This document shows positions 2,853-35,487 of a stretch of 57,918 bases of DNA, piece by piece. The stretch comes from a virus (Duplodnaviria > Caudoviricetes): IMG/VR virus record IMGVR_UViG_3300026907_000064, positions 1-57,918 of that record; one strand, given 5' to 3'. The position numbers and the translations under genes are program-made. The notes below the pieces were generated by a model. The model was given only the letters and a program-made list of their open reading frames with translations. It was not told the DNA's origin and ran no database searches. The stretch's first letter is position 1; each line of letters starts with the position of its first letter.

Positions 2853-3338
2853 ATGTCGGCATACTCAAATGCAGTGAAAGACTACATCGAGCGCTATCAG
2901 CGCGAGAAAGGTGATTCCAGCGGTCTCGTTGATACACATGAACTCGCGGCCTGGGCTTACGAGAACGGCCTGCACAAGCCGAACGCCAAGACCATCATTG
3001 ACGCCATTGCGGCTGATATCGCTCAGGTCTTTCGCGAAGAATACAGAACGGATCGTCACGGGAGGCGCTATCGCGCGAAACACGCCACAACAAAAAAGGT
3101 AGGCAACAAGACGCTCTCGCTTTGGGCCGACCTTGACGATCCCAATGCCCCGCATGAGCATTTCCAGCGCTCGTTCGCTCAGCGGCGCCTTCAGATTGTG
3201 GGCGATTGCTTCCAGCTCAAGACTGACGCCGATGTGTACAACGACCAACGCCAGCCCGAAACGCCCGTCCAAATTGTCCTGGACTTTTCCTACGACGTGG
3301 AAGAACTTCAGCTCCGCAACAACAAGCGGGCTGCATAA
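2853..3338 (+). CDS. Hypothetical 161-aa protein, third gene of the HigB/HigA-peptidase operon (candidate toxin/effector)
   Basis: GGAGGA RBS, co-oriented and 18 nt after the peptidase stop, with a globular charged sequence. Confidence 0.8.
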   Translation: MSAYSNAVKDYIERYQREKGDSSGLVDTHELAAWAYENGLHKPNAKTIIDAIAADIAQVFREEYRTDRHGRRYRAKHATTKKVGNKTLSLWADLDDPNAPHEHFQRSFAQRRLQIVGDCFQLKTDADVYNDQRQPETPVQIVLDFSYDVEELQLRNNKRAA

Positions 3339-4666: not shown

Positions 4667-4922
4667 GGGTATACCTCTCGATGACCTTGGGCTGGGCAGT
4701 GGCGAGCGTGTGCGCGGTGTCGGCCAGGCTCTGCGACAGCCCGGTCAGCCGCTCGGCCTCAGTCTTGAATTCCTCGAGGCCTGCCACGCGGTGGGCTTCC
4801 TGGCACTCGGCCCGACCGGCCGCACGCTGGGCGTGCCCGTACCAGGCGACGGCACCTGCGGCCAGGGCCAGAGCAGCAGCCCCGATCAGGTATGGCGCCG
4901 CGGCGCGCAGCAGCGGGTTCAT
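4530..4922 (-). CDS. i-spanin (Rz-like)
   Basis: N-terminal TM helix (IGAAALALAAGAVAWYG), coiled periplasmic part, directly after the endolysin. Confidence 0.8.
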   Translation of the reverse strand: MNPLLRAAAPYLIGAAALALAAGAVAWYGHAQRAAGRAECQEAHRVAGLEEFKTEAERLTGLSQSLADTAHTLATAQPKVIERYTREIVQRPLPADCVRDPGRVRATNEAIDAANAARQPQRAVPAGAAR

Positions 4923-5329
4923 GCCTGCCCCTTCCATTCGCGCGGAATCTGGAAGTGCGGGCCGTCTTTGAACGACTTCCAGTCGCCGCCCCACTCCACT
5001 GGCACGCCCAGTTCGGCCGCGCACGCCTTCACGACGTCCGCCAGCCGACGGAACTCTTCCCAACGGTCCCAAGGAATCGCTCCGCCCACCAGCGGCGCCA
5101 GGTCGACCGCGCGGCCGTAGCCATCGACCTGTTTCAGGTGCAGGCTGTTCTGCGTCTGGCTGGCCCCCTTGGCGACCAGCTCGCGCTGGCGCTCGGCCGT
5201 ACGCAGGCCTTCCACGACGGTGAAGTCCACGGGCGTGCGCCGAATCGCCAGTTTGACGATTTCGACAAGCTGGGGGTGTACCCCTTCCAGGCGCTGCAGG
5301 CTGCGCGCCGACAGGATGAATTCGGGCAT
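4919..5329 (-). CDS. Endolysin, M15-family L-Ala-D-Glu peptidase
   Basis: EGLRTAERQ, SLHL, GRAVDL and WGGDW..FKDGPHFQ motifs. Confidence 0.92.
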   Translation of the reverse strand: MPEFILSARSLQRLEGVHPQLVEIVKLAIRRTPVDFTVVEGLRTAERQRELVAKGASQTQNSLHLKQVDGYGRAVDLAPLVGGAIPWDRWEEFRRLADVVKACAAELGVPVEWGGDWKSFKDGPHFQIPREWKGQA

Positions 5330-5393: not shown

Positions 5394-8300
5394 TTAGCGG
5401 CGCGCGGCGCGGGCGTGCTCGTCGGCCAGCATGGCCAGGCGCCCGCGCGCGCGGTAAAGCAGGTCCAGCTGCGCTCGCTTCTCCTCGGCCGGCAGGCTGG
5501 AACGCTCCAGGGCCTTGATCCTGGTGTTCACCTCACGCAGCTGGCCGTCGGCAGTCTTGAACAGCGAGCGCAGCCGCAGCTGATCATCCCCCGCCAGCGC
5601 GCGCGCCCGCTCCAGGTCGCCCAGCTCGCGCGCCTGCGAGTACGCCGCGTACACCTGATTGATTTCGCGCTGCTCGTCGTAGAACCGCTGGATGTACTTG
5701 CTGCTGCGCGGGTCTGCTTCCTTGACGAAGTCGCCCAGCACGAACCAGTTGTCCATGCGGCCGAGGTCGCGGCGGGGATTCTCCGGCAGTCCCGACAGCG
5801 GCCTGGCCAGGTAGTCCGACGCGTTCAGCGCCTGAGTGCCCAGCCAGCCGAAGTAGCCGCGCACCAGGTGCTCCAGGCGCTGCGGTGACAGGCCCAGGGT
5901 GCGGCCCAGCGCTACAGCGCCGGCAGACGTCGACGCAGTGAAGCGATCGCCAGCAGGCAGGCGTTGCTGGCCAACGCTGTCGATGTCACGCTCCCGGAAC
6001 GAGTCATAGTTGAACGCGGCTTCCATAGCAGGCTTGACGATCTGCGGCACCGGGTTCATAGACAGCTGCTCGCTCAATATCGCGCCCACCGTGCGCCCGA
6101 AGTCGCCCAGGCGGAAGTCGTCACCGCCGAACGCCAGCTCGGTGCCGCGCTCGACGACACTGCCCAGCGCGCCGATTTCGAAGGGCTTGGGAATGTAGAC
6201 CAGCTGATTGGTGCCGGGCAGCTTCGTAATCCAGAACGAATTCCGGGCCCAGTCTGGCAGCTGCTTGTAATCGTCGTCATCCTTCATGCCCAGGTAAAGC
6301 AGCGCCGACGCCATAGCGACAGCGCCCGACACCACCGCGAAGCGTGCGGGATCCGCGGCCGCGCCACGCCCCAGCTTGTACATGCCCTGCAGCCTGGCGT
6401 TGAAGAACGGCACCACCTGGGAAAGCAGGCGCACCGCGGAGAACGTGCCGCCGGCGGTGAAGTCCATGAGGTCGCGCGCGGCGTAGCTCGCCTCCAGATG
6501 GCTGCGGCCGGCATTGCGGGCCTGCTGATAGATGGCGGCGCGGTTGATCGTCTCCGCCCGGTCGCCAGTTTCCTGGTACCAATCGAAAGCCCGGCGCATC
6601 GCCCGGCCCATGCCGGCCGGGGACGTGATCACGTCGTCGGGATGGGCGCCCAGCTCGTCAACCAGCCGTTTCACATTGCGGGCATTGCCGTCGTTGAAGG
6701 ATCCAAACCGGACGGCTCCGCCACCCGCCATCAGGCGCCGCCAGGTGTCGCTCTCCGCCCCGGTCGCTCGCCACCCCTCGACCAGGTTGCGCAACGGGTT
6801 AGTGGACAGGTTGCTGTCGATGGACATGGCCTGGATGGTGTCGCGCAGCAAGTTGCGCACGCGGAAGGTCGGGCTGATCGTCACGCCGACGGTCAGCGCG
6901 TGCTTGAACTTGCGCGCAGCCTTGGTGAACGGGTCATTGGAGCCCACGTAGTGCAGCGACGTCAGCGCATTCATCACCAGGGGATCATCCACCAGGTAGT
7001 GGCGCTCCTGCCCGTCGAACATCGCCCGCACGCTGCCGCGCTCCGCCTGGCGCACGCGCGAGGCGATACCCAACTTTTCCGCCTCTTGCAGCGCGCCCTG
7101 CGCGGCCAGGTTCTTCATGCTGGCCGAAAGGAGGTGCGACCAGTTGGAAACGGTGTTCGCCACCAGGTCGCCCAGCTTGTCGGTGCCACCCTTGAGGCGC
7201 TTGTAGGCATGCTGGCCAACCAGGCCGCCGATCTGGCCCGGCCCCATGGTCCCAGTCGCATCGTCCTCCATGACGCGGTAGAACGGGACATAGAACTCGC
7301 TTTCCCAGAGCGCGCGCGAACTGGGATCGACCAGTCCAGCCTGCTGCGCAACGTCCATTACGGAGCGCTGCAGCTCGTTGAACTGGCGCAGGGCTTCGCG
7401 GTAGACGGTAGAGCGCTCGCGACCGTCGGCCATTCTGCCGTCGGCCAGGCGCATGCCGGCCGCGATATCGTCGGGCGTGAAGAGACGTTCGCGCGAGGCG
7501 GCTTCTGCCTTGGCGCCCGGCCAGCGCGCCGCTTCCGCCCGCGCCGCGGCCTCGTCGGCAAAGCGTTCCGTGACGCCATTCTCGAATCGAACTTGCCATT
7601 CCGCTGCCAGCCGCTGCGCGCGGTTGGCAGCTATCCAGGCCATGAAGTGATCGTGCTCGCCATTCAGGCCGGCCAGGATCTCGGCCAGGCCAGCGCCGCC
7701 GGCCGTGTCCAGCGCGCCATCCTGCAGCCTGACCGCGCCATGCCGAACAAGATACTCCGCAGCACCGTCGGCCCCCTTCGACAGGCGAGCCTGCATGTAA
7801 GCCGTGGCGCTGATCCCCTTGAGCGGTGCGAACTGATCGAAAATGCCCTGCACCAGCTTGGCCTGCCAGCGGTCGGACACCTTCGCCATGCGTTCCTTGA
7901 TGGGTTCCTGTTCGGCCCAGGCTCCGATCTTGCCCAGGAACTTGTTGCGCTGGCGCCGCTCGATGTCCGACAGGGTTTCACCCGGCCGGGCGATCTTGGC
8001 GCCGCGCTTGGGCTCGCGAGCGGCGGCCGGCCCGGCAGGTGGCGCCCCGGCCGTCGAGGCGCCGGCGGCGCGCGATTCCCTGGGGCCAGAAGTAGAAAGC
8101 CCCGCACTTGGCGGGGCTTCGTTGTTGGCGTCGCGGCCTAGTGGGCGCGCGGCTTCTTCAGGAGCTCGCCTGCCAGCTTCATCGACTCGCGCATGTCTTT
8201 CAGCAAGGATTCGGTCTCGGACGGCGTCAGGCGCGTCATGCTTGGCGAGATAACGCCCTTCTGATTCCGTGAGCGCGTCGAAGCCGCGGCCAGTGGCTTC

Positions 8301-11300
8301 GCGGAAGGATTGTTCGACATCGCCATAGAGGGCTCGCAGTTCAGAAAGGGTTTCGGGGGACAGCCGCAATGTAGCGCTGTAGCGCTTGCCAGTCAACGCG
8401 AACGACCCGACAACCCGGCCCCCGTTTTGCTGGATGTGCGAGGCCAGCGCCGCCAGCGTGCCGCCTTGCGTCAGCGTGTCGTCCACCAGGAAATAGGCCT
8501 TGCCCGGCTGTACGGCGCCGTCGAACTCGGGCTGCTGAAAGATGCGGCCCAGGCCATCGAGCGTGGTGCGCTTGGCCTTCACCGACTGGTAGATACCGGC
8601 ATCCACGGGCAGGCCAAGCCGCTGACCCAGCGCCGTCGCCGCTACCGCCGGGATCTTGTTGTGGCCGGTGGCTTCAACGGCCAGCACGGGGACAATTGCC
8701 GGACGCTCGCCGCGGATCGCCTCCCGCACCTGCGCCACGGCCTCATCCGAAAGAACATCCTGAATCAAGCGCACGGCGGCCGCCGTGTCGCCCGCCTTTG
8801 CGGCGGCGTGGTCCGGGTGTTTACCGGCCGCGCCCAGCCGCTGCCCTATCACCACCGGAGGCAGCTCGACGGGTTCCTGGCCGCGGCGCGATTCAGCAGC
8901 GAGCGATGCCGCGGCCTCCTGCATGCCAGCGCTCACGCGCGCGGCGGGCGCACGCTGCAGGAACCGGCCGGCATCGATCACCATCTGCTTGATGTCGGTG
9001 TTGTTGAGCTGGAGGTTCAGACCGAGTCGGCGCAGCGCGGCTCGGATTTTTCCGTACAGGCGTTCCAGGAACAGCGGGCGCTTCCCCTGTTCCGCCATCC
9101 GCGCCAGCACTTCGCGCGCGCGGTTCTCGGCCGAATAGTCCGGATAGCGCGCGGTCACTGCCTCGAAGGTGGCGTAATGCTGATGCTCCGGGCCGGCGTC
9201 GCGCGGGATCTGCGCCCCATCCGGCGCCCTGGCCAGGCGGCGCACGTCGGCCAGCACGTCGCGGAATCGGTCGCCCAGCACGGCCTCCACGCCAAAGTGG
9301 CCCACAACCTCATGCGCCAGCACCTGCTGCAGGCGCTCCGCCGTCGGCAGGTTCTCGGCCACCAGGTAGATGCGGCCCCCGTCGCCCGCCGGATAGTACG
9401 CGCCCTCGGCCAGCGGCGACGGCTTCGCCCCTTCGGGGATCTGGTCGACGGTTTCGACGACAGACACGCGCAGGCCCGCCGCGCCCGGCAGCTTGCTCAT
9501 GAACTCCTCGGCCTGCCGCCGCGCCGCAGCGACATCCACGCCGGGCATGCGGCTGCCGCGGCTCTCCAGGGCAATCCGGCCGCCCTCGCGCGGCACCTGC
9601 TCGACCGTCTGGAAAAATCGATCGAAGGCGGCGCGAACCGGCGCAATCTCGGCGGCGGTCGGGTACGGATAGGACTGCTCGTCCCGGAACGCCTTTTCCG
9701 TGACGACGTTGGCCAGGTAGTCGTTGGCTGCGCCCTGGTCGGCCAGCTTGGCGATCACGTAGCTTTCAAACGCCCGTGCGGACATTTCCCGGCCCGTCGT
9801 CCAGTAGTCTTTCGTCCGGCGGGCATCCAGCTTGCTGGCGCGCTCGCGCATGCCGATCAGGCCGATCGTCTGTTTCAGGGCGCCGAAGGCCTCGGCCATG
9901 GCTGGCCGGATCCCTGTGGCTTCCCGCCCCGACTCGGACGCATAGGCGATCGGCGCACCGCCGCGCCGCGAAAAGTAGTTGTCCAGGCCGTGCCACCATT
10001 CATGAGCGAGCGAGCCCGCGCCTCGCGTCTTGGTCAGGTTGATCACGACCTGGACGGGCTCATAGTGCGCCAGCGCGGCGTTCTTGCCGCCGCTGCCGCG
10101 CGCACCGAAGGCCAGGCCCAACTCGCCGTTGAGCGATAGCGCGCGCGGCGGCACGCCAATGACGCCGGCCAGATCCATCAGGGCGTCATAGGCTTCATTC
10201 AGGTCCGCCTGCCGGCGGCTGCCCTCGACGTAGTTGCCGAACTGCACACCACGAAAGCCGAAGGAGTCGGCAAACTGCTCGGCCGACACGTCGCCGCCGT
10301 CTCGATGGTCGACGCCGACGCGCGGCGAATTCGTCTCGCGGCGGTGGGCGGGCGTCTCTTTGATCCTCTCCAACTGCTGGGCCAGGGCGTCCTTGTTCTC
10401 GGCCAGGAAAGCGCGGGCGGCCTTTACATCGTCGAAGCGCTGCAGGTCGACATGCACGCGCCCCACCTTCTTGCCGATGTAGAAGCCCGGCATGCGCGGC
10501 CGTGAGTAGATGTCGAATCGGACTTCGCGCCCCGGCGCGGCGGTCCCGTCTTCCTCCGCCCAGGCACGCTCGAATGCCTCGATCGCTGCCGCGGGCGTGG
10601 TGCCATGCCCCATGATGTCGGGCCAGTTACCAAAACCCGACGCGGCCTTGCGCTCCACGGTCCAGATGGTGCGCGGGCTATCGAACGTCTCGCCGTTGAA
10701 CACGCTATAGCTGCCGGAGCGCAGCGACACGCCGCGCAACGAGCGCTCATGCCCCACAGCCTCATACAGCTGCGCGCGGCCGTATACCTTGCGCAGTTCG
10801 GGTGATTTTTCCAGACCCGCGCGCACGTCGGCCGCCTTGAGCGTGCCGTCCAGCATCGAATTGGAGAAGTCACGCAGGGTCTGGACCTGGTCGGCCCAGC
10901 CCTTCACCTTCCAGCTGCTGCGCGGCTTGGCCGGGATCTCGTCGCGGCTGGCGTGGGCCACCGCCACCAGGAACGCATCCGCGCCGTCCTCGATGAGCTT
11001 GGCATAGTTGGGTTCTGGCCAAGTTTCGGACAGCGAGTGCTTGGCGACCGGCAGGGTTTCTGCCAGGCGCATGCGCTCGGTGTACTGCTCGGCGTAGTGT
11101 TTCCGTGCCCCGTGCAGAGTCTCGCCGAAATCTTCAATGCGCCCGGCGGACGGTGCGGCCGGCTCCGCAGCCGTGGGCGCTGCATCGGCCTCTGCAACTG
11201 CGGCCGGCGCCAACTCCATCTGGCCGCGCGCCGCGCCCTGATCGGCGGCTCGATCGCTGCCCGTCAGTACGAAATCATCGCGCGCCGCATCGGCGGCGGC

Positions 11301-14300
11301 GCGCTGGTCGGCCTCTCGGGCCTGAGTGGCGGCGCCCTGCTCCGCGACAGCCGCCGCCTCGGCTGCATTACGCAGCCCGTCGGCCGTCGGGTTCTCAAGC
11401 GTCAGCGCTTGCGGGCCGCCCGCGCGATCACCTCCTGCGCCTGGCCCATCGCCTCGCGCTCCCGGTTGGCCTGCACCGCGCGAAGGATTGCCAGAGTCCC
11501 GTCGGCCATACGCCGCTGCTTGGGACTTAATGTCGGCCTCGTAGAGTTCGGCGTCGCCGTCGGCTCGGATTGAGGCGCGCTCGATGATGGCTTCTTGGGT
11601 TGGGACATCCGTAATTCCTTGTTCGCTCAGGTAGACGGCCGCGTCGAACTGCGCGGCCAGCTCCAGCGCTGTCGTACCGGTGGGCATGGCGTCGATGACG
11701 CCAAAAAGGTCCTCGGCCAGCTTCTGCTTGTCTTTCGTATCGCTGAACCGCTCGGCTTGGCGCTCAGCATACGCGCGGCGGGCAGCCTCGTCCATCTGGT
11801 CCAGGCTGTATACCGCCTCGCCCTCCATAGCCTCGCGGACTCGATCCATCGCGGTGTTGGAAAGGTCGACCGTGTCGCCGTCCATGGGCAGGTACCCGGC
11901 TTGCTGCATCGCCTCGACCAGCATATCGGCGTCCATCCCGCCCTTGCGGAACAGGCCGGGCGCGCGGCGGTTGGCCAGGTGCGCGCGATCGCCGTAGATA
12001 TCGGCCGCCAGCTCCGGCCGAATGCCTCCAGCCTTTCGCACCATCTGCAGGAAATCACGGCGCGCGGTCTGGCCGAACTCGGCCGCGGACGGCTGGGCCT
12101 CGACACGGGGGGGTTGACCAGTTCGCGGGCGGGCGACGAATCCACCGTCCACCGGCACGGCGTCGGCATTGCCATGCGCCGTCGCCGCGCGCTGCGCGGC
12201 CCCGCGCGTCAGGAACGGCCGGCCGCCCTTGGCGGTCACGTCCGGCTCTGACACCAGGGTGCCAAGCCCAGACTCGGCCGCCGGCAGCGTGGTGTCACCG
12301 TCCGCCAGCCAGCGTTTGAACGTGGGCACGTCCATCTGGGTAACCTTGCCCATGCCGCGCCAGTCCGGCGTGTAGCTGTCGCGATAGGCGCGCTCGGCTT
12401 CCTCTCGCGTGTCGTAGCCCAGCATCACCTTGGATTCATCAAAGCCGCGGTGCGCGGGGTCCACCTGGTCGATGACGAACACCGGCCCGCTGAAATCCGG
12501 CGCAGTGCCTGGACGGACGAACACGTCGACCTGATCGCCATCGGCGCCTTCGGTGCGGCGGATGTAGCCATAGTGCCCCGCCATGCGGTTTGCCCACTGG
12601 GTTCCGTCCGGCGACGTGCCGCGGCGCTCCGAGCCCTCCGGATTCTCGATCGACAGTTCCAGGCCGGCCACGCGCGTGCGCCCGACCTTGTAGTTGCCGG
12701 CCGCCTTCTGCGCTTCCGAGGGCTCCGGCAGGTTGTTGCTGGGCGAGGTGGCTGCTTCGTGTGCGGCGGTGTCGGTCGCCGCGCCAGGATGGCGCGCGCC
12801 CGCGGCGGCGACGTCTGGCGTCATGCCCATGGCTGCCTGGCGCGCCAGCTCGGCATCGCGCTGACCTGACGTAGCCGCCACGCCCTGCCCGTCCACCTGG
12901 TAGACCGGCGCAGGCAAAGCCGCACGGGCCGGCGTGCCCTTGAGCGCGGCATCGATCCCCTCCTGCATCTGCGCCGTGGTGTACGGCTGCATGCCGTTCT
13001 CGTGCTGGATGATGGCAGCGGTCAGCCGGGCCAGAACGGTCGGGTTGCTCAGGTCCAGCCTGTCGTCGGGCTGCACCCCCACCGCACGGCTCACCTGCTG
13101 CACGTAGGCGCCCGTCTCGTTTTCCGAGTCCGGCGCCCAGCGGCCGATGATCCCCTGCACGGTATCCAGGCCATGCCGGCGCTGGTAGGTCAAGAGATTG
13201 ACGGCCAGACCACGGATGCCGTCCTCCGGCGCCTTGAAGGTGGCAAAGCGCGGATCGTTGCCCTCGACCTCGCCATCGAACCCGACGCCCTTCTCGATGT
13301 TGCCGGGGTTGTTGTTTCGGATCCCACGCGGCGCGTTTGCCGGCATCCGCCAGGACTCGCGGGCGGTAAAGCCCTCGCCAGCGGCGTAGCCCTCAGGCGC
13401 CGGCAAGGCCTGCCGCTCGATGGGCGCGTCCAGCACAGGAAAGGCCTGCGGCCCCTCAAGCGCGGCCGGCCCATCCATCGCCTCGCGCAGAGCGTTGCCA
13501 GGCAGCGGGTCGGCGGCCAACTCCGACAGACGCACAAAGCGCCCGCGGCCATCCGCCGTACGGATCCGCGCCAACGGCTCCCCGCCGGGCCGGGCAGTCG
13601 CGGCGTTTCGCTCCACCCCCAGGAACTCGACAGGCAGCTCGCGGCCATTCTGGCGCAGGTATACCTGCTGCCCGCGCGTGAAGGAATCGGACGCCGAGGT
13701 TTGCTCCTGCTCCGCTTCCGAAGACTGGCCCGCCGGGCGTTGCGCCTTGGCCAGCTCGTCCGCAGGGACATACGAATCCTGGCCGTTCACCCGCACCTTG
13801 GCATAGCGTCGCCCATCTGCGCCCGCCTCCTGCTCCAGGAGGACGAATTCAACTGGCACATCATGGTCCGCGTTCTTCCACAGAACCTGTTCACCGGGCT
13901 CATAGGTCGGCGCCGCCGGCTCCTGCTCCGATGGGGTAGCGGCCTGGGCAGAGTCCGCCATATCCCGCCCAGGCCGAACGATGAAGCCATTTTCGTGGCG
14001 CATGACCTGCGCGCCCTCACCCAGCTCTGCGGCGCGCTGGCGCGCGGCGCTGGCCGTCACGAACGGCTTGCCGCTGGCGTGCATCACGTCACCGGCTTCC
14101 AAGCTGGGGGCCGTCGGCGTACCCCGGCTGCGTACACCATCTGCCGCGCCGTGCACGGCGCCCGGCCCCATGCCCGCGACGAAGCCGAGCGCGGCGTTGC
14201 CAAATGATCCCGCGAGCGGGTCCAGCTCCATGCCAGCGCCGGCGTTGATGCCCTTCTGTGTGGCGACGCCCTCGCCCACTTCCTGGACGGCTTCCTCGGT

Positions 14301-15221
14301 GCCGGCCAGGCCTGCGCGCCCGAGGGTCTGCGCAACCACGCCGCGATCGCCCAAGACTCGGCCCGCCGGCGAGAGAATGCGGCCCGTCGCAGCACCACCC
14401 AACGCGGACACGGGCACTGTCCGCACAAACGCAGCTTCCTCGGCCTCTGCTCGAACACGCGCGCGGGCCTGCTCCGGCGTCGCGCCCTTCGCGACTAGGT
14501 CGCGGTAGGCGGACGAAGCCGCGGCCAGCTGTTCATCATCCATCCCGTCGATGGTTTCGCGCGCCTGCTCGATCGCGTTGCCCCCCCCCTGGGCACCACC
14601 CGCCGCGGCGCCGGCCGCCATCCGCGCACCGATACCCAACGGGCCGGCCGCGGCGGCCGCCGCGATGGGAAGCGCGCTGCTGCCCAAGGCATTCATGCCC
14701 TGCAGTAACAGGCCCGAAGCGGAGGGATCGCGGCCGAAGGTCCAGGTGTCAGGTTTGTCCAGATCGCCAGCGGGCTGCGAGTCCGCCTCGCGGCGCTTCG
14801 CTTCGTCCGTCCGAGAGTCCAGGACACGCTCACCCAGGCGATGCGTGGTATCCGCGGCCCCTTCGAACGGGTTGGTCGGCACATCCAGGCCCGCGTCAAA
14901 GGCTTGGTTGAGCGCCGTGACGCCCACGCGGCCCAGGCCTTCTGCCACCTTCCCGACGCCTCGCACGGCGCTGCCCGCTCCCTTGATGGCGCCACCGGCC
15001 AGCGTCTTGGGGAAGTCGACAAACTCTATGCCGCCAGTCTCCTGTTTAGGACGCGCGAAATCTGCGACCCGAAAGGAGAATGCCGCCGGCGCGCCCGTGG
15101 TACCGGCAGGTGCCTTGGCGTCCGAGAATTGCACGTCCAGGTCAGCTCGCACGCCGTCACGACGTGCGGCAACCTCGTCCGCGAACTCGATTCCGTCCAA
15201 CAGGTTATCAAAGTTGGCCAT
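5394..15221 (-). CDS. Giant (~3,275 aa) polyvalent virion/ejection protein
   Basis: Motifs in order: RGIRNNNPGNI (lysozyme-like, ~13330-12950); GNYKVG...SIENPEGS.R...HYGYI..T.GADGDQVDVFV (InPase-like, ~12720-12300); IEDFGE.L.GARK (LPD5-like); FRGVQFGN...GSLAHEWWH.LD (LPD1-like); LAHEVVGH (zincin); LVDDTLTQGGTL (PRTase); PKPFEIG (LPD38-like). It is the last gene of the virion cluster. Confidence 0.9.
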   Translation of the reverse strand: MANFDNLLDGIEFADEVAARRDGVRADLDVQFSDAKAPAGTTGAPAAFSFRVADFARPKQETGGIEFVDFPKTLAGGAIKGAGSAVRGVGKVAEGLGRVGVTALNQAFDAGLDVPTNPFEGAADTTHRLGERVLDSRTDEAKRREADSQPAGDLDKPDTWTFGRDPSASGLLLQGMNALGSSALPIAAAAAAGPLGIGARMAAGAAAGGAQGGGNAIEQARETIDGMDDEQLAAASSAYRDLVAKGATPEQARARVRAEAEEAAFVRTVPVSALGGAATGRILSPAGRVLGDRGVVAQTLGRAGLAGTEEAVQEVGEGVATQKGINAGAGMELDPLAGSFGNAALGFVAGMGPGAVHGAADGVRSRGTPTAPSLEAGDVMHASGKPFVTASAARQRAAELGEGAQVMRHENGFIVRPGRDMADSAQAATPSEQEPAAPTYEPGEQVLWKNADHDVPVEFVLLEQEAGADGRRYAKVRVNGQDSYVPADELAKAQRPAGQSSEAEQEQTSASDSFTRGQQVYLRQNGRELPVEFLGVERNAATARPGGEPLARIRTADGRGRFVRLSELAADPLPGNALREAMDGPAALEGPQAFPVLDAPIERQALPAPEGYAAGEGFTARESWRMPANAPRGIRNNNPGNIEKGVGFDGEVEGNDPRFATFKAPEDGIRGLAVNLLTYQRRHGLDTVQGIIGRWAPDSENETGAYVQQVSRAVGVQPDDRLDLSNPTVLARLTAAIIQHENGMQPYTTAQMQEGIDAALKGTPARAALPAPVYQVDGQGVAATSGQRDAELARQAAMGMTPDVAAAGARHPGAATDTAAHEAATSPSNNLPEPSEAQKAAGNYKVGRTRVAGLELSIENPEGSERRGTSPDGTQWANRMAGHYGYIRRTEGADGDQVDVFVRPGTAPDFSGPVFVIDQVDPAHRGFDESKVMLGYDTREEAERAYRDSYTPDWRGMGKVTQMDVPTFKRWLADGDTTLPAAESGLGTLVSEPDVTAKGGRPFLTRGAAQRAATAHGNADAVPVDGGFVARPRTGQPPRVEAQPSAAEFGQTARRDFLQMVRKAGGIRPELAADIYGDRAHLANRRAPGLFRKGGMDADMLVEAMQQAGYLPMDGDTVDLSNTAMDRVREAMEGEAVYSLDQMDEAARRAYAERQAERFSDTKDKQKLAEDLFGVIDAMPTGTTALELAAQFDAAVYLSEQGITDVPTQEAIIERASIRADGDAELYEADIKSQAAAYGRRDSGNPSRGAGQPGARGDGPGAGGDRAGGPQALTLENPTADGLRNAAEAAAVAEQGAATQAREADQRAAADAARDDFVLTGSDRAADQGAARGQMELAPAAVAEADAAPTAAEPAAPSAGRIEDFGETLHGARKHYAEQYTERMRLAETLPVAKHSLSETWPEPNYAKLIEDGADAFLVAVAHASRDEIPAKPRSSWKVKGWADQVQTLRDFSNSMLDGTLKAADVRAGLEKSPELRKVYGRAQLYEAVGHERSLRGVSLRSGSYSVFNGETFDSPRTIWTVERKAASGFGNWPDIMGHGTTPAAAIEAFERAWAEEDGTAAPGREVRFDIYSRPRMPGFYIGKKVGRVHVDLQRFDDVKAARAFLAENKDALAQQLERIKETPAHRRETNSPRVGVDHRDGGDVSAEQFADSFGFRGVQFGNYVEGSRRQADLNEAYDALMDLAGVIGVPPRALSLNGELGLAFGARGSGGKNAALAHYEPVQVVINLTKTRGAGSLAHEWWHGLDNYFSRRGGAPIAYASESGREATGIRPAMAEAFGALKQTIGLIGMRERASKLDARRTKDYWTTGREMSARAFESYVIAKLADQGAANDYLANVVTEKAFRDEQSYPYPTAAEIAPVRAAFDRFFQTVEQVPREGGRIALESRGSRMPGVDVAAARRQAEEFMSKLPGAAGLRVSVVETVDQIPEGAKPSPLAEGAYYPAGDGGRIYLVAENLPTAERLQQVLAHEVVGHFGVEAVLGDRFRDVLADVRRLARAPDGAQIPRDAGPEHQHYATFEAVTARYPDYSAENRAREVLARMAEQGKRPLFLERLYGKIRAALRRLGLNLQLNNTDIKQMVIDAGRFLQRAPAARVSAGMQEAAASLAAESRRGQEPVELPPVVIGQRLGAAGKHPDHAAAKAGDTAAAVRLIQDVLSDEAVAQVREAIRGERPAIVPVLAVEATGHNKIPAVAATALGQRLGLPVDAGIYQSVKAKRTTLDGLGRIFQQPEFDGAVQPGKAYFLVDDTLTQGGTLAALASHIQQNGGRVVGSFALTGKRYSATLRLSPETLSELRALYGDVEQSFREATGRGFDALTESEGRYLAKHDAPDAVRDRILAERHARVDEAGRRAPEEAARPLGRDANNEAPPSAGLSTSGPRESRAAGASTAGAPPAGPAAAREPKRGAKIARPGETLSDIERRQRNKFLGKIGAWAEQEPIKERMAKVSDRWQAKLVQGIFDQFAPLKGISATAYMQARLSKGADGAAEYLVRHGAVRLQDGALDTAGGAGLAEILAGLNGEHDHFMAWIAANRAQRLAAEWQVRFENGVTERFADEAAARAEAARWPGAKAEAASRERLFTPDDIAAGMRLADGRMADGRERSTVYREALRQFNELQRSVMDVAQQAGLVDPSSRALWESEFYVPFYRVMEDDATGTMGPGQIGGLVGQHAYKRLKGGTDKLGDLVANTVSNWSHLLSASMKNLAAQGALQEAEKLGIASRVRQAERGSVRAMFDGQERHYLVDDPLVMNALTSLHYVGSNDPFTKAARKFKHALTVGVTISPTFRVRNLLRDTIQAMSIDSNLSTNPLRNLVEGWRATGAESDTWRRLMAGGGAVRFGSFNDGNARNVKRLVDELGAHPDDVITSPAGMGRAMRRAFDWYQETGDRAETINRAAIYQQARNAGRSHLEASYAARDLMDFTAGGTFSAVRLLSQVVPFFNARLQGMYKLGRGAAADPARFAVVSGAVAMASALLYLGMKDDDDYKQLPDWARNSFWITKLPGTNQLVYIPKPFEIGALGSVVERGTELAFGGDDFRLGDFGRTVGAILSEQLSMNPVPQIVKPAMEAAFNYDSFRERDIDSVGQQRLPAGDRFTASTSAGAVALGRTLGLSPQRLEHLVRGYFGWLGTQALNASDYLARPLSGLPENPRRDLGRMDNWFVLGDFVKEADPRSSKYIQRFYDEQREINQVYAAYSQARELGDLERARALAGDDQLRLRSLFKTADGQLREVNTRIKALERSSLPAEEKRAQLDLLYRARGRLAMLADEHARAARR
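8088..8119 (-). terminator. Intrinsic terminator inside the giant gene, 18 nt after the nested ORF stop
   Basis: Minus strand AAGCCCCGC-CAAGT-GCGGGGCTT-TCTACTTCT, a perfect 9-bp stem. Confidence 0.7.
8138..8326 (-). CDS. Nested +1-frame small protein (62 aa; alternative starts at 8320 and 8239) overprinted on the PRTase module
   Basis: Own promoter upstream and terminator downstream. Amphipathic helix LTPSETESLLKDMRESMKLAGELLKK. SD is weak. Confidence 0.65.
   Translation of the reverse strand: MAMSNNPSAKPLAAASTRSRNQKGVISPSMTRLTPSETESLLKDMRESMKLAGELLKKPRAH
8368..8396 (-). promoter_or_regulatory. Intragenic sigma70 promoter driving the nested ORF
   Basis: Minus strand TTGACT (8396-8391), 17-nt spacer, TACATT (8373-8368). 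Confidence 0.72.
11402..11608 (-). CDS. Second nested +1-frame small protein (68 aa) within the giant gene
   Basis: AAGGA SD 7 nt before ATG. Helical C-half LSPKQRRMADGTLAILRAVQANREREAMGQAQEVIARAARKR. Possible promoter TGGACG-17-TATGCT at 11794-11766. Confidence 0.55.
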   Translation of the reverse strand: MSQPKKPSSSAPQSEPTATPNSTRPTLSPKQRRMADGTLAILRAVQANREREAMGQAQEVIARAARKR

Positions 15222-16974
15222 CTGCACCCTCTACGTTGTTGCGCCCCATCGCGGCGCGCGTGATTTCTGATCCTTCCGTGGCCCGCGCCCAACGCTCCGC
15301 GGCTGCTTGCTCCGCGGCTCTGGCCAGCTCGACGTCGCGCTCCGCCTGTTGCAGGCGTGCGGCATGGGCGGCGCGTGCCTCCTCACCTGCCTTGAGGCCC
15401 GGAGGCTTGGTCCGCAGCTGGCGCACTACCACCTCGGCTTGGCGCAGGTCGGTACGCGCGGCATCCAGCTGCGCACCTTCCGCGCTCTCCGCCGCCGGCG
15501 AAACTGCGGTCGTCGATGGGCGGGACGGCGGGGTTTGGCGAGCCGCGGCGTCCGGCGCTTTCGCGGCAGCTGCTGGCGCCGTCTGGGCCTCGTTCGTGGC
15601 GGCGCCGGTCGAGGCCGGAACGGTCTGCAGCCGCGTCCGGATCTGGTCCTGAACTTCCTTAGGCACGACTGATACGGGTAGCCGCACCAATCGGCCCTCG
15701 TGCTCGACACCGAAGCCGAACTGCCGATCCCCCAGCTTGATGGGCACGATCGAAGCCGTGCCTTCCTGGACTTGCTGCGACAGATCGGCCAGGTTGCCCG
15801 GCGTCAGCACTTCGCCGGCGGGCGTACCGGCATTCAGCCGATTGATGTTTTCACCCACGCTGATGATCCCGCTCACACGTTTGCGCTCGTCCTCGCCCAG
15901 GGCTTCCAGACTGTCCACCTTGTTGATGCGCATGACGTGATTGGCGAAATCCTTGTCGGAAGTGACCATCTTCGGCTTGCCCGCTTCGCTTCCTTGAGCG
16001 CTAGCCCGCATGCCACCCTTGCCATCAGGCATGTACAGCGTCTGATCCTTGCCCAGGATTCGGGGTTTGCTAGCCTCCTCGTCCTTGCGCAGCTGACTGG
16101 CCAGCAGCGCCTCCCGGCGCTTTTCCTCCGCCTGATACAGCAGCTTCGCCTGCTGCGCCACCATGGCCTGCTGGGCCTTCGGATCGCTGATGCTCTGCAC
16201 GAAGCTCTGCAGCATGTGTTCGGTAATGGGCTGCTGCACCCGCTTTCCCGTGGCGGTGTCTACGCCGACGAAGTCGTACAGCGGAGCGCCGCCGGCCTGC
16301 TCCGCTCGCCGATTGATAGACGTCACCTCGATGCCGCCCGGCATAAAGCGGTTCACGAAGGGCACAAAGGAGTTCGGGTCACCGGTCAACTGGTATCGGC
16401 TCTGCGCAGTCGCGAACGCCTGTTCCCTGTGCTGTCCGACGAATCGCTCGCGGTCGGTGAGCAGTTCCATCGCACGGCCTGGCTCTCCCAACTCCAGAGC
16501 CTTGCGGTAGGCCCGCGTGAGACCGTCGGCGACCTGGCCGAAGTCCCCACCGCCGAGGAAGTCACCGACGTCCGGGCTTTTTTTTTCCGCAGCGGCACCA
16601 AATCGGGAGGCACCTTGCCGCACAGCGGTGCCGTTCCCAAACTGCGCGCCGGGCGCGAAGTCGCCCAGGTTGACGGTGGTGGGGTCCGGCCCCTGGCTCA
16701 AGATGGGTATGCCCGTGGGGTTGATTGGCACCGGCTGCAAGCCGCCCACGTCACCCGACGCCGGACCGCCCGCCACAGCCTCGGGAACCTGGATCCGCTC
16801 AAGACCAGCCTGCGCCGGTCGCTGCGAGCCATCGCCTGCCAACGCGTCGGCAATCTGCTTGTCAGCCTCTCGTGCCCGCCGCTCCTCAGTAGCCCTGTTG
16901 AAGGCATTCCCGATAGCCATTCCGTTGCGCAACCCGTCGGCGAGGCCGCCCGCAAAACTTCCAATTCCAGCCAT
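15208..16974 (-). CDS. Internal virion/ejection protein (588 aa)
   Basis: N-terminal GSFAGGLADG Gly/Ala pattern, helical, located between two other ejection genes. Confidence 0.7.
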   Translation of the reverse strand: MAGIGSFAGGLADGLRNGMAIGNAFNRATEERRAREADKQIADALAGDGSQRPAQAGLERIQVPEAVAGGPASGDVGGLQPVPINPTGIPILSQGPDPTTVNLGDFAPGAQFGNGTAVRQGASRFGAAAEKKSPDVGDFLGGGDFGQVADGLTRAYRKALELGEPGRAMELLTDRERFVGQHREQAFATAQSRYQLTGDPNSFVPFVNRFMPGGIEVTSINRRAEQAGGAPLYDFVGVDTATGKRVQQPITEHMLQSFVQSISDPKAQQAMVAQQAKLLYQAEEKRREALLASQLRKDEEASKPRILGKDQTLYMPDGKGGMRASAQGSEAGKPKMVTSDKDFANHVMRINKVDSLEALGEDERKRVSGIISVGENINRLNAGTPAGEVLTPGNLADLSQQVQEGTASIVPIKLGDRQFGFGVEHEGRLVRLPVSVVPKEVQDQIRTRLQTVPASTGAATNEAQTAPAAAAKAPDAAARQTPPSRPSTTAVSPAAESAEGAQLDAARTDLRQAEVVVRQLRTKPPGLKAGEEARAAHAARLQQAERDVELARAAEQAAAERWARATEGSEITRAAMGRNNVEGADGQL

Positions 16975-19646: not shown

Positions 19647-19936
19647 CAGCGCACCCCGTAAACGATCTTGACGGGCCTGCGATCGCCTGGCACGCCAGCA
19701 ATAAAGCTCCAGGAAATCGTCGTGCCGCTCAGGTTGATGACCGGCGTACTCTGAATCGCTCCGCCTTCGCCTGGCGACAGAGTGGCGATCCAGGCCACGC
19801 CCTGCGCAAGCTCCGGAATGGTGACCGCCCCGTTGGAGGTCCCCGTGTTCACGCTCCCGAGCTGGCGCCCTATCCGGCTGGTGTACGACACCAGCGTTGC
19901 TCCCGAGGGGCCGTAGGTTTCAAGACCCGCTGGCAT
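19646..19936 (-). CDS. Small tail-tip-associated protein
   Basis: MPAGLETYG...TISWS...IVYGVR pattern, coupled to its neighbours. Confidence 0.65.
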   Translation of the reverse strand: MPAGLETYGPSGATLVSYTSRIGRQLGSVNTGTSNGAVTIPELAQGVAWIATLSPGEGGAIQSTPVINLSGTTISWSFIAGVPGDRRPVKIVYGVR

Positions 19937-21105
19937 TACCAGATCCCCAGCCGCACACGCAGCACATTGTTGCCGTCGAACACCAGCAGCAAGTTGTCGC
20001 GAATTTCTAGCCGTGCTCCCGTGGCCGCAGTCCGCAGCAACCCGATCGTGGCCGTGATGGCAGACAGCGATGTCACGTTGAGCTTGTCCGCCGTCACTGA
20101 GTTGCCGGCCAGGCGCGCAACGTTCAGGTATCCCGCGGTGATCTTCTCCGCATTCAGGTTGGCGATATGCCCGTCCTGCACTGCGGCGAACTGAATATTG
20201 GCCGACTTCACGTAGGCGTCTGTGATGATGGCCAGCCGCGCAGACAACGACGCGACCGTCAACCGGTCCGCGTTGAGGCTATTGACCGCGATGCGATCGC
20301 CGCTCATCTCACCGAAGGTGATCTTCGCCGCGGACAGGTTGGCCACCTTGGCATCCGTGATGACGGCGTTGCCTAGCTGCAGCGTCCCAATCGAGCCGTT
20401 CGCGACGTAAAGATTCCGGATGTAGATCCCCGGCGGCACGGGCACGCCGTTGATGACGGTGGGCTCATGGACCTCGTACAGCAACGCCTTTGGGTCGCCG
20501 GCCGCCGACAGCACGTCTATCAGGTAGCTGGGGTCCAGCGACACCGTGCCTTCCTGGCCGCCCACGGCGTTGAACGGGCCAACCTTCCCGCCGCCGGAGA
20601 TGTACCGGATCCAGTAGAAATAGGTCACCCCACCGGCGCCGCCGACCGGGTCCGCGTAGACCCAGCCCGTGGTCTGGCCTACGTTCACGGCCTGCGCCAC
20701 ATTGTTATTGGTGCTGCGGAAAATCTCGGCATAGCCGAAATAGGCAAAGTTCGGCTTGTCCCACTCCAAGATGACAGTGCCCAGTCCGGGCGTCACCTTG
20801 AGGCCCGTTGGCGCCGGCGGGATACCGTCCACCACGGGCGGCAGCGAAGGCTGGAACTGGCCGCCAGGGTTCTTCACCAGGATGGTCTTGCCGGTCGTGC
20901 CAAGCATCGTGACGATGCCATTCTCGACAAGGTCGCCCCAGGTCACCGCACGGTCCACCGCCTGGCCGCCCTTCCCGAAGCGCGTCTGCAGAATCTGCCG
21001 GACCTGCTCCATGGCCCGCGTCGCGGCCACGTTGTCCGGAAAGCGCGCGCTATCCACCGCGGGTAGCTCCGCGTAGCGAAGGCCCGTTACAGAGGAAGTC
21101 GCCAT
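19936..21105 (-). CDS. Tail spike/host-specificity protein (FN3 domain + J-like C-terminus)
   Basis: PPAPTGL...LEWD...YFYWIRY (FN3), short A-K-I beta repeats, and a C-terminal LVFDGNNVLRVRLGIW. Confidence 0.75.
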   Translation of the reverse strand: MATSSVTGLRYAELPAVDSARFPDNVAATRAMEQVRQILQTRFGKGGQAVDRAVTWGDLVENGIVTMLGTTGKTILVKNPGGQFQPSLPPVVDGIPPAPTGLKVTPGLGTVILEWDKPNFAYFGYAEIFRSTNNNVAQAVNVGQTTGWVYADPVGGAGGVTYFYWIRYISGGGKVGPFNAVGGQEGTVSLDPSYLIDVLSAAGDPKALLYEVHEPTVINGVPVPPGIYIRNLYVANGSIGTLQLGNAVITDAKVANLSAAKITFGEMSGDRIAVNSLNADRLTVASLSARLAIITDAYVKSANIQFAAVQDGHIANLNAEKITAGYLNVARLAGNSVTADKLNVTSLSAITATIGLLRTAATGARLEIRDNLLLVFDGNNVLRVRLGIW

Positions 21106-21107
21106 CG

Positions 21108-22763
21108 TCAGGCCGCCGTCACGTTGCCCAAGGTGGACGCCACCGTCACTTCCGTGACCGCTGCAGCCCCACTGACGGAATACTCGAACTGCCGCGCCCG
21201 GTAGTTCCCAGGCAGACGGAATGGGCGGCCGTTCAGCGCCTGCGCCGAAACACGCACCTCCCGCGGACCCGTCGACGATTCGATAACCGCCGTCAGTTCA
21301 AACTGCACCGGGTAGGCGTCGGCAATGACTTGCGCCGCGCCGATGTTCTGTGGCCGCTCGAGGATGTAGCGTTTGCTCAGATGCCGCATCGCCAGGCGAG
21401 CGCCGGCCCCCTCCCACTTGTGCACGGTGGTCCCGCCCAGCACCAGGAAAAGCTCGTCGCGGCGTCCGTCCGAGAAGCTGGCCGTGGCGTGCACGTCCGT
21501 CCGCGTCAGACTCATTGCGCCGCTGGTAAGGTCGAAGATCAGCCCGCCGCGCGCGGCGCCGGTGTCGTACCAGCAGAAATATCGGTTGTCGTGGACAGCG
21601 GCATGCATCGACTCGGGCCGGTACGCCTGCCACTGTTCGCGCGTCAGCAGCGCCTCTGTCACCAGCGACAAGCCGCCGGTCGGGTCCACCATGGCCAGGC
21701 CGTCAGGGGATGCATAGACCACACCTCCCTTAAACGGTTTGATGGTGCGCTTCGCCACGCAGGGCTGGTGGCCTTCAAGGCGCACAGGCGTCAACATCAC
21801 CGGATCGGCCTGGGTGGCGAGATAGGTGTCGCCCTTGGTGCATATGACCGTGGCCTGACCCATGATCGCGCCACCCACGATTTCATCGGCCACAGGCGAA
21901 AAGTAGGGCCAGCCGTAGGGCTTGAAGACCTCCGACCGGCACACGCGCTTGCCGGAGAATCCAACCATGAACCCTGCCGGGTGCGCCATCAGGCCGAATA
22001 AGTCCGCCGGTGGTGGCACCAGGGAGCGCTCCGGCAGCGCTTCGCCCAGCAGGGTGAAATCGACCTTGTCGTTGAAGGCCACGGCGCCGGCCGGAATCTC
22101 CTTCCAGAGGCGCAGCACTGCAGTCCCGGCCGCGTCCGTAGTGGACAGGTACAGCCGTTTGAGCTGGATGTTGTACTCGCCCGTGGGCGGACCCTGCAGG
22201 TTGAATACGTTGATAGTGTCGCCCGTGGCAGCATCAAACGAGTCCGTCACCTCATTCGGCGGCCCTTCTTCGCCCCAGGCAGAAACGAAGGTGTACGCCA
22301 GCAGGCAGGCTTGCCGCTCGAGGTTCGCTGGGGGGTTCGGCTGGGACGTCACGATCACGGCGGCCGGCGCGGTTGCGGCGGGAATTCCTAGGCGATACCA
22401 GGCGGACGGCATCTGCGCGCCCGCGGTCGCCATAGTCGAATCCGTCACCCGCGGCGGCTGGCCGGCCTCGGTAAAGTAGGTGCGCTCCTGCGTGTCATCC
22501 GGAATCGGCCCGCGGGCCACGTCCGTGTCCTGCCTCCAGTGGAACCAGAACCGGGAATCGTCATCCAGGCTGCGACCGAATCGGTAGATCGCCAGAATCG
22601 GCGCAGCCTTCGCCAGCGTCGCGACCTGGGCCGGCGCCCGGCGCGGCACCAGTGAGCCGCGCACGACATTGACATTCAGCATGTCCTGGCTGGCGCCCGG
22701 CGGCAGCAGGTGCGGCTCCACCCTCGGCAGCATGCCGGAGAACGCCTTGACAGCTTCCCTCAT
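21108..22763 (-). CDS. Tail nozzle/tubular protein (P22 gp10-like position)
   Basis: 551-aa beta-rich protein with FSGMLPR, YTFVSAWGEEGPP and YASPDGL motifs. Confidence 0.65.
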   Translation of the reverse strand: MREAVKAFSGMLPRVEPHLLPPGASQDMLNVNVVRGSLVPRRAPAQVATLAKAAPILAIYRFGRSLDDDSRFWFHWRQDTDVARGPIPDDTQERTYFTEAGQPPRVTDSTMATAGAQMPSAWYRLGIPAATAPAAVIVTSQPNPPANLERQACLLAYTFVSAWGEEGPPNEVTDSFDAATGDTINVFNLQGPPTGEYNIQLKRLYLSTTDAAGTAVLRLWKEIPAGAVAFNDKVDFTLLGEALPERSLVPPPADLFGLMAHPAGFMVGFSGKRVCRSEVFKPYGWPYFSPVADEIVGGAIMGQATVICTKGDTYLATQADPVMLTPVRLEGHQPCVAKRTIKPFKGGVVYASPDGLAMVDPTGGLSLVTEALLTREQWQAYRPESMHAAVHDNRYFCWYDTGAARGGLIFDLTSGAMSLTRTDVHATASFSDGRRDELFLVLGGTTVHKWEGAGARLAMRHLSKRYILERPQNIGAAQVIADAYPVQFELTAVIESSTGPREVRVSAQALNGRPFRLPGNYRARQFEYSVSGAAAVTEVTVASTLGNVTAA

Positions 22764-34771: not shown

Positions 34772-35487
34772 CAGTGCATCGTGGCCCCGGCGCCAGCGGC
34801 GCGCAGCTGGGCGAGGACGGTTTCCACGGGCACACCTTCCAGTTCGGCAATCTCGGCAGCCGCCTGAGCAATGGTTTGATCCAGTTCGGCGTCCGATTTC
34901 TTGTCCAGCTCGCCCAGCCGCAATTCCTTGCGCTCGACGAACATGCCCAGGTGCCGACCGATCAGCTCCAGATTGGGCGTCTTGGGCGCCAGCTTGAGCG
35001 TGAAGTTGCCGTTGCGGTCCCAGCTCCAGCCGATGATGCAGCGGCGGACCTGCTCCGGCAGCAGTTTCAGATCCCGCGGGCTCGTGATGTCGCGCACCTC
35101 GCCCGTCGTCGGATCGGTCACCACCAGGTCGGCCGGGTCGTAGAAGCCCATCGCCACCCACTCGGCCAGCACGCGCTCCGCTTTCACCTCCAGCTTTTCC
35201 GAGAGCTTGTCGCGCATGGCCTGGACCGCCGCAGCGACATTAGCCTGCGCTAGCAGCCGGGACGCGCCACTGACCGCCGCCGCGCCTTTCGCCTTGTAGG
35301 CCGCCTCATACGCCTTGGTCTGGTTCAGGAAGCCGCCGGCGGCGAACTCATCCACGAACCGACGCTGTTGCGGCGTCAGGGCGGTATCCGCAGACACCAC
35401 GCGGCGGGCGGCGGTCGACAACGTGCGTTTCGAGCGCGCAGGCGTCTTCCGCGCCTGCTTGGGCGCTTTGGATTTCCTGGTGGGCAT
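34771..35487 (-). CDS. Terminase small subunit
   Basis: LTPQQRRFVDEF...AY..AY...ASRLL...V and LELIGRHLGMF motifs. Confidence 0.88.
   Translation of the reverse strand: MPTRKSKAPKQARKTPARSKRTLSTAARRVVSADTALTPQQRRFVDEFAAGGFLNQTKAYEAAYKAKGAAAVSGASRLLAQANVAAAVQAMRDKLSEKLEVKAERVLAEWVAMGFYDPADLVVTDPTTGEVRDITSPRDLKLLPEQVRRCIIGWSWDRNGNFTLKLAPKTPNLELIGRHLGMFVERKELRLGELDKKSDAELDQTIAQAAAEIAELEGVPVETVLAQLRAAGAGATMH

Follow-up and report, generated by a model that had tools for sequence, protein, structure and literature searches.

Does the gene for a giant phage virion protein conceal a second, smaller gene in one of its inter-domain linkers? The question is raised by a 57,918-nt stretch of DNA from a tailed phage (Caudoviricetes; positions 1 to 57,918 of IMG/VR record IMGVR_UViG_3300026907_000064), hereafter the window. 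Within the gene for a 3277-aa polyvalent protein (the host gene), a first-pass annotation had pointed to a 68-aa open reading frame (ORF) on the minus strand, 11608-11402, in the +1 frame and with AAGGA 7 nt upstream of its ATG, and the ORF is present exactly as claimed. It is a complete ORF lying within another gene in a different frame. Its start codon, Shine-Dalgarno (SD) sequence and stop are conserved among relatives, and the part of it that encodes a predicted helix evolves under purifying selection specific to the +1 frame. On these sequence comparisons, 11608..11402 is in all likelihood a true overprinted gene; the fuller explanation, in which its product also acts in trans as a partner of the adjacent host module, we regard as reasonably probable. 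That the nested gene is translated, and that its peptide binds and has a role, we infer. The features on which the argument turns are as follows.

5394..15227, minus strand: host gene for a 3277-aa polyvalent virion (ejection-type) protein, P0001 (ORF and Pfam)
11402..11608, minus strand: nested 68-codon gene (stop included) in the +1 frame of the host ORF, ATG at 11608-11606 and TGA at 11404-11402; nested codon position 1 is host codon position 2
11616..11620, minus strand: SD sequence AAGGA, 7 nt ahead of the ATG (sequence)
11606..11608, minus strand: start codon ATG of the nested gene (sequence and conservation)
11531..11608, minus strand: nested codons 1-26, a P/S/K-rich tail predicted to be disordered, where the host frame dominates (selection ratios and structure model)
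11405..11530, minus strand: nested codons 27-68, the helix-coding part, where +1 is the selected frame (selection ratios, tree counts and structure model)
11402..11404, minus strand: stop codon of the nested gene, its alignment column shared by 20/20 sequences

Conservation of the start, Shine-Dalgarno sequence and stop

Relatives of the locus were drawn from the nearest deposited phage, Achromobacter prophage CF418P1 (L001; 81% nucleotide identity across the region), nine IMG/VR loci, four Achromobacter genome contigs, and further metagenome and viral loci retrieved using an alignment of the most distant protein matches. After duplicates and one locus with host-frame stops had been removed, the final set comprised 20 distinct sequences, namely the window and 19 relatives. 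The rows removed were L007 (identical to L005), L021 (identical to L020), L009 (many host-frame stops), and L011, L022 and L025, which are the same contigs as L002, L010 and L019. The nested ORF is intact in 20/20 of the distinct sequences. In the excluded L009, an IMG/VR contig, the giant gene carries many host-frame stops, due to frameshifts or assembly errors, yet its 68-aa nested ORF is unbroken.

Conservation of the +1 frame and of the SD sequence among relatives had been set beforehand as the test on which the prediction would stand or fall. ATG and AAGGA were found in every relative examined, first in 15/15 alignment rows and then in 8/8 further rows; the latter include L020, whose host domain is only ~60% identical. 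The ATG is invariant though the host residues vary there (D/N, then V/A/E/G), and the host codon at this position holds the less-used T ending. The SD sequence is made of two rare host codons that are invariant in a 13-row alignment: CAA, which accounts for 12% of Gln codons, and GGA, which accounts for 4% of Gly codons. Among the 154 comparable upstream columns with an invariant residue, 27 keep a single codon, and 26 of those 27 are common codons. The nested gene has, in short, a conserved translation start of its own, consisting of a ribosome-binding site and a start codon.

The stop is likewise conserved. It falls at one alignment column in all 20 sequences, as TGA in 13, TAG in five and TAA in two. 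The host Leu codon at this position is CTA or TTA (1% and 0% usage) in 7/20, preserving the stop, and one or other of these two codons is used in every case (5/5) in which a G opens the following host codon. In that context any other Leu codon would extend the nested frame by 46 codons.

One relative deserves separate mention. In L020 (1976-2143) the nested ORF has 56 codons; AAGGA, ATG and the first helix half are conserved (LS.KQR.MV.GTMA pattern), and the second helix half is different and shorter, yet basic. The conserved half is the one that forms the predicted interface described below.

Selection on the two reading frames

Over the nested gene, the host frame encodes a G/R/A-rich linker. 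Its GC content per codon position is 0.84/0.74/0.53, compared with 0.73/0.51/0.82 for the whole gene, so that third-position GC (GC3) at the linker is low (0.53 vs 0.82), bearing out the earlier remark that A/T-ending codons are unusually common here.

Selection was followed in a 13-sequence codon alignment covering most of the giant gene, using Nei-Gojobori ratios of non-synonymous to synonymous change (pN/pS) in the three sense frames and in sliding windows. The scan comprised 2,259 windows of 36 codons with starts from 15143 to 8270 (L004 and L012-L015 cover part of that length). Median pN/pS across the gene was lowest in the host frame (0.23) and higher in +1 (1.69) and +2 (2.12). An alternative frame fell below the host frame in 35 of the 2,259 windows; all 35 are contiguous (11588-11381) and all favour +1, the lowest giving 0.40 for +1 against 1.15 for the host. 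With 20-codon windows, the nested locus supplied 39 of 46 hits, the others being marginal and in gapped regions. For nested codons 27-68, the 13-sequence alignment gave pN/pS of 0.43 (+1), 1.03 (host) and 1.35 (+2), and the set of 20 sequences gave 0.55, 0.90 and 1.34, respectively. The comparison of frames that had been proposed as a check thus came out in favour of +1, on which purifying selection is stronger, across the helix-coding codons, than on the host frame.

Counts of codon changes on a tree lead to the same result. By parsimony, the helix part shows 82 synonymous and 110 non-synonymous changes in +1, against 43/140 in the host frame and 23/157 in +2; in the flanks, the +1 frame gives 100/777. 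Host synonymous change (pS) reaches its minimum within the scanned part at 11528-11486 (0.146; median 0.465, 1st percentile 0.22) and is back to ~0.57 directly past the nested stop. The three antisense frames contain stops in most relatives, and the sense +1 ratio is the lowest of the six frames. Purifying selection on the embedded frame is therefore distinct from that on the host frame.

Several points weigh against the reading as a gene. The +1 frame stays free of stops over 68 codons in 87% of 20,000 synonymous resamplings of the host codons, and the host gene contains 16 same-strand out-of-frame ORFs of at least 68 aa; the ORF by itself is expected by chance. Constraint in the +1 frame, at 0.43-0.55, is moderate rather than strong, and pN/pS is biased where two frames overlap. 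Fisher tests (8e-5 for +1 vs host in the helix part; 1.5e-21 for +1 in the helix part vs the flanks) are descriptive only because the frames share the same substitutions. Nested codons 1-26 lack +1 constraint (pN/pS 0.61 for the host frame and 1.21 for +1), so the position of the start is carried solely by conservation of the ATG and the SD sequence. Finally, relatives with a named host are nearly all Achromobacter prophages and most rows are at least 74% identical in the host domain; L020 is the sole distant row, and phylogenetic depth is limited accordingly. What goes beyond chance is comparative, namely the conserved start, SD sequence and stop together with frame-specific selection.

These points might be taken to mean that there is no second protein, and that a near-neutral, low-complexity linker has been shaped by mutational or compositional bias, by local recombination among close prophages, or by sampling noise. 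A chance ORF would suit such an account, as would a host pN/pS of about 1, which would leave the linker free to drift; the relatives form a narrow clade, and the GC-phase test is unspecific, with GC1 above GC3 in 697 of 3238 windows of the host gene. A neutral stretch should, however, give a ratio of about 1 in all frames, rather than 0.43 in +1 and 1.35 in +2. Other host linkers with raised ratios (0.6-0.75) have alternative frames at 0.8-1.1, never below the host in 36-codon windows, and low host pS with high pN is the opposite of what recombination is expected to leave. The stop, moreover, is held by paired changes and rare codons, and the SD sequence by rare codons. We consider this explanation improbable.

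What is conserved could also be nucleic acid, whether a folded RNA, a DNA site with a regulatory role or an opposite-strand gene. Synonymous change in the host frame is reduced over 11800-11402, and a plus-strand ORF (10953..11573) shares wobble positions with the +1 frame. Against this, variation is three-periodic in the +1 phase with its 82 synonymous changes, which neither a structure nor a binding site leads one to expect; antisense stops occur in many relatives, and the mirrored antisense frame fares worse than sense +1 (pN/pS 0.80 vs 0.55). The signal also terminates precisely where the nested gene does, while the antisense ORF continues to 10953. An element of this kind seems highly improbable. 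Taken together, the frame-specific pN/pS, tree counts, pS and antisense results argue against RNA structure, an antisense gene and a merely neutral linker, and the overprinted gene is the reading carried forward here. The antisense ORF itself (10953-11573, plus strand, 206 codons) is codon-aligned with the host frame; it lacks conservation, with extra stops in several relatives, and is typical of GC-rich genes.

The predicted nested peptide and its putative partner

The nested frame had been said to read as a clean helix, and structure modelling agrees. In an AlphaFold2 (AF2) model from an 11-row alignment, residues 1-28 are disordered and residues 29-66 form one long helix; the mean predicted local distance difference test (pLDDT) score is 79.8, 25 residues reach at least 90, and the tail scores ~61-63 without secondary structure. 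Residues S28, P29, Q31, R33, G37, T38, I41, L42 and A44 are invariant, as are A57, Q58, I61, A65 and K67. Within the Achromobacter group, conservation extends to the C-terminal half of the helix (residues 53-68), and the basic end is retained even in L020.

Searches for relatives of the peptide outside this locus returned nothing. It matched 0 Pfam families, gave only E values of 0.09-0.23 against PHROGs, and reached a best score of 0.77 in the ESM Atlas, under the level that counts. A word search of 5.8 billion proteins produced four matches, each the same nested ORF, and a full HMMER search of 1.84 billion representatives produced four, all of them the same ORF or an upstream-extended form. 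The few database copies are unnamed or called 'hypothetical protein', and the nested locus carries no annotation in the deposited CF418P1 sequence. An in-frame copy of the helix was sought in 28 homologous giant proteins, with no match there (every E > 1); descent from an ancestral in-frame helix through a compensated frameshift is thus unsupported. With no outside relatives and no in-frame copy in those 28 proteins, the peptide appears to be lineage-restricted and born by overprinting rather than left over from an earlier frame.

What might such a peptide do? The suggestion had been made that its partner is the small domain encoded just upstream. A complex of this host domain (residues 8-192 of alignment A2) with nested residues 25-68 was modelled, and the feature that emerged on the host side is the following.

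11541..11747, minus strand: host-frame helical sub-domain, P0001 ~1161-1229, the predicted docking site (complex model)

The complex scored 0.84, compared with 0.02 for the best of three controls; the score expresses the confidence of the model itself, and the alignments behind it were shallow (8 and 10 rows). The mark used for such scores is reached by 58 of 80 solved complexes and two of 110 mismatched pairs, counts that are rough here as custom alignments were used. At least 96% of contacts are shared between runs, and the partner reaches a pLDDT of 81 or more. The interface takes in residues 118-186 of A2 in the host domain, where AF2 places helices at 124-137, 144-159, 165-179 and 183-192 (pLDDT 60-84). 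On the peptide side it comprises residues 27-52, and the contacts of lowest error are G37, T38, I41, L42 and A44, all invariant. Neither the C-terminal half of the helix nor the basic end takes part in the predicted interface; both may contact something else. The suggested partnership therefore has the backing of a model, and the contact falls on P0001 ~1161-1229 and not on the DFLQMVRKAGGI end that had been singled out.

A profile search of the host domain against solved structures in the PDB found no resemblance, with only marginal matches to DltC and portal proteins (E 0.07-0.7), and the domain has no Pfam match. Since no solved structure resembles it (best E 0.07), the complex is unlikely to have passed through memory of a known one. 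The marginal profile match to D-alanyl carrier proteins (E 0.07-0.4) covers the helical sub-domain at 11583-11732 (A2 123-172), where a DAM in the host aligns with the DSM serine motif of DltC. From this alignment the sub-domain may be a carrier-protein-like bundle without the modified Ser. Assignment as a carrier protein was rejected, as the similarity to acyl carrier proteins or DltC is not significant at these E values and DAM stands in place of DSM with its phosphopantetheine Ser.

The complex model supports binding of the peptide to the upstream sub-domain without showing it. To the points already raised against the reading must be added that the host domain alone folds at low confidence (AF2 pLDDT 57.8), and that the modelled nested N-terminus lies near the C-terminal helix of the host, a geometry that would also fit a fused frameshift product. 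Such a product deserves consideration in its own right. A programmed +1 (or -2) frameshift would yield a truncated isoform of ~1270 aa ending in the helix, with no free 68-aa protein. There is no +1 constraint before nested codon 27, the point at which the host domain ends, and in the model the beginning of the nested helix makes contact with the final host-domain helix, as would be compatible with a covalent join. SD-like sequences can also stimulate frameshifting, as in prfB and dnaX. Within 11625-11530, however, there is no conserved slippery or stop/hungry-codon site, nor any conserved shift-prone codon with a stimulator at a fixed distance. Where constraint sets in, the relatives differ in their codons (TCC CAA, TCC GAA, TCA GCA, CGA GAA), and there is no homopolymer run for transcriptional slippage. 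A frameshift would, moreover, leave unexplained both the rare-codon SD sequence and an invariant ATG 26 codons upstream. We think a frameshift isoform quite unlikely.

An independently initiated peptide acting in trans would accommodate these observations as follows. Within the giant protein's mRNA, ribosomes would initiate at AAGGA-N7-ATG, translate 68 codons in the +1 frame and terminate at 11402. Codons 1-26 coincide with the final part of a folded host domain and would be left to encode an unconstrained, disordered, P/S/K-rich tail; the last 42 overlap a G/R/A host linker that tolerates nearly every change and would encode a conserved amphipathic helix with a basic end. This helix probably docks in trans on the three- or four-helix sub-domain encoded directly upstream, partly on the same DNA, and the peptide would be a dedicated partner of that module. 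Guided by the model, we favour a trans-acting cap, chaperone or inhibitor of the upstream module, with none of the three roles assignable over the others. The gene is unusually testable, as it offers a short helix, an interface predicted at residue level and mutations that are silent in the host frame.

Candidate promoter, second nested ORF and phage setting

A putative promoter had also been proposed ahead of the nested gene.

11766..11794, minus strand: promoter-like TGGACG-17-TATGCT, putative, with TGGACG at 11794-11789 and TATGCT at 11771-11766

Both hexamers are present as proposed, and as a promoter they are weak. They match eight of 12 positions of the consensus (TTGACA-17-TATAAT), and a promoter and terminator scan of 11200-12300 returned 0 promoters and 0 terminators, the hexamers falling under its threshold. 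Both, including the rare GCT codon, are retained in 19/20 sequences; in L020 the -10-like hexamer ends in C. Host pS dips to 0.208 at 11780-11738, the fifth lowest non-overlapping 15-codon window. On the minus strand, 11738-11800 holds an invariant cluster of host codons over the hexamers (CAG, GAC GAG, CGC CGC GCG TAT GCT, GCC), which could mark an internal promoter or another signal at the nucleotide level. An internal promoter for the nested gene is possible from the sequence. Of 24 sequencing runs, nearly all of them DNA or contigs, four were compared with the window. X6 is probably DNA, and X21 and X22 gave no cover. Contigs from an RNA-library run (X18), itself retrieved using this stretch, include one of 415 nt (11336-11748) and one of 249 nt (6830-7072); contigs cannot show transcription or its starts and ends, and no inference is drawn from cover or its lack.

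The candidate promoter bears on whether the small protein, if real, has a different job. It might be made in the lysogen from an internal promoter and block superinfection by kin, or, as a basic helix, it might bind to DNA, to the inside of the capsid or to some host target. The selection evidence applies equally to such roles. The hexamers with their rare GCT are kept in 19/20 and host synonymous change dips over them, and conserved residues 53-68, together with the basic end that even L020 retains, lie outside the predicted interface. On the other side stand the most conserved residues (G37, T38, I41, L42 and A44), which sit in the confident part of the modelled interface, the sub-threshold promoter match and the terminal C of the L020 hexamer. 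Another job for the peptide is unlikely on balance, and partnership with the upstream module is retained as the preferred account.

The pattern had been expected to recur within the host gene, and it does, in a second nested ORF.

8138..8326, minus strand: nested ORF of 62 aa in the +1 frame, after a PRTase-like domain (7-sequence alignment)

Host GC3 falls to its minimum for the gene in this region (0.425), and the ORF shows the same split signature. In the 7-sequence alignment the N-terminal part is dominated by the host frame (pN/pS 0.15 vs 3.65 in +1), whereas in the C-terminal part (8242-8141) the ratio is lower in +1 (0.59) than in the host frame (0.89), with +1 favoured in ten successive 20-codon windows. 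Two ATGs and the position of the stop are conserved in the window and in L026-L031. A comparison of the 62-aa and 68-aa peptides revealed no sequence similarity, so that one polyvalent gene contains two nested ORFs unrelated in sequence.

Whether each inter-domain linker of giant polyvalent ejection proteins can encode an out-of-frame small helical binder of the preceding module is a broader proposition that we hold to be doubtful. If it were true, linker-encoded binders would be built-in trans partners that might cap an effector module during assembly. Were they made in the lysogen from internal promoters, these partners might instead neutralise the same module injected by a related phage, a form of nested immunity.

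Small genes embedded out of frame have precedents. In phage lambda, Rz1 is nested wholly in Rz on the same strand, in the +1 frame and with its own start signals, and the two products cooperate physically; Rz1 itself, a lipoprotein, carries a signal peptide and a lipobox Cys. The present gene resembles Rz1 in lying entirely within a larger phage gene, on the same strand, in +1 and with start signals of its own. It differs in that its peptide has no Cys and no signal peptide, and in that the host gene encodes a polyvalent virion protein and not a lysis protein. An Rz1-type o-spanin was considered and rejected, as neither a Cys nor a hydrophobic N-terminus occurs in the 11 aligned peptides. Further examples are comS inside srfAB of Bacillus subtilis and mobB inside mobA/repB of RSF1010, small out-of-frame genes in very large multi-module genes, as here. 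Their products, however, act on unrelated targets (MecA/ClpCP and the relaxosome), whereas the predicted target in the present case is a module encoded on the same stretch of DNA.

Overprinted genes also occur in small viruses, mostly RNA and single-stranded DNA viruses under genome-size pressure in the portions of the literature drawn on here (PMC8227390; tombusvirus p19/p22, PMC11044054). The likeness to the cases treated in those portions lies in a new frame arising within an older gene, in a short, partly disordered, lineage-restricted product and in an older frame that is relaxed where the new one is constrained; the difference is that the present overlap lies in an inter-domain linker of a 58-kb, double-stranded DNA (dsDNA) temperate phage.

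The host gene is typical of the polyvalent proteins of phages and conjugative elements as understood by Iyer et al. 2017 (PMC5512222), with InPase (838-974), LPD5 (1510-1654), LPD1 (1800-1877) and LPD38 (2984-3145) strung together by linkers, all four above the Pfam cut-offs; it was identified as polyvalent because these domains are present, and several LPD/effector domains do lie on one phage polypeptide. The main text of PMC5512222 contains 0 mentions of frameshift, overlapping, alternative reading, internal start or linker, and uses 'nested' only for a hairpin fold. In the text of PMC10457797, on CF418-P1, 'overlapping' and 'polyvalent' occur 0 times. Literature searches on polyvalent proteins, phage overprinting and LPD38/Achromobacter found no description of genes nested in polyvalent-protein genes. 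As far as the literature was searched, linker-hidden genes are thus absent from the published picture of polyvalent proteins, and the predicted fit of a nested peptide to the adjacent host module is new.

Gene callers drop ORFs that lie inside other genes. If the nested gene is real, the giant polyvalent proteins of phages and plasmids, seen as multi-tool weapons, would also conceal small partner proteins in their linkers, which would change the annotation of such genes, views of how their modules are regulated and assembled, and the estimated frequency with which new genes are born by overprinting in dsDNA phages.

The phage itself has a dsDNA genome of ~58 kb and is temperate and podovirus-like; CF418-P1 is described as a temperate, inducible prophage in the text of PMC10457797 considered here. 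The host gene stands at the end of a podovirus-like structural module, directly before the endolysin gene, and the principal neighbours are listed below.

33365-35161, minus strand: terminase large subunit (PHROGs)
31086-33368, minus strand: portal (PHROGs)
21108-22763, minus strand: internal virion protein (PHROGs)
19936-21105, minus strand: tail fibre (PHROGs)
4919-5329, minus strand: endolysin (PHROGs)

Relatives of the giant protein (P0008-P0035) range from 2543 to 3358 aa in several modular forms, which differ in whether they contain the LPD5/LPD1 block, LPD3 (PF18798) or other inserts. The domain that carries the nested gene is retained in all of these forms.

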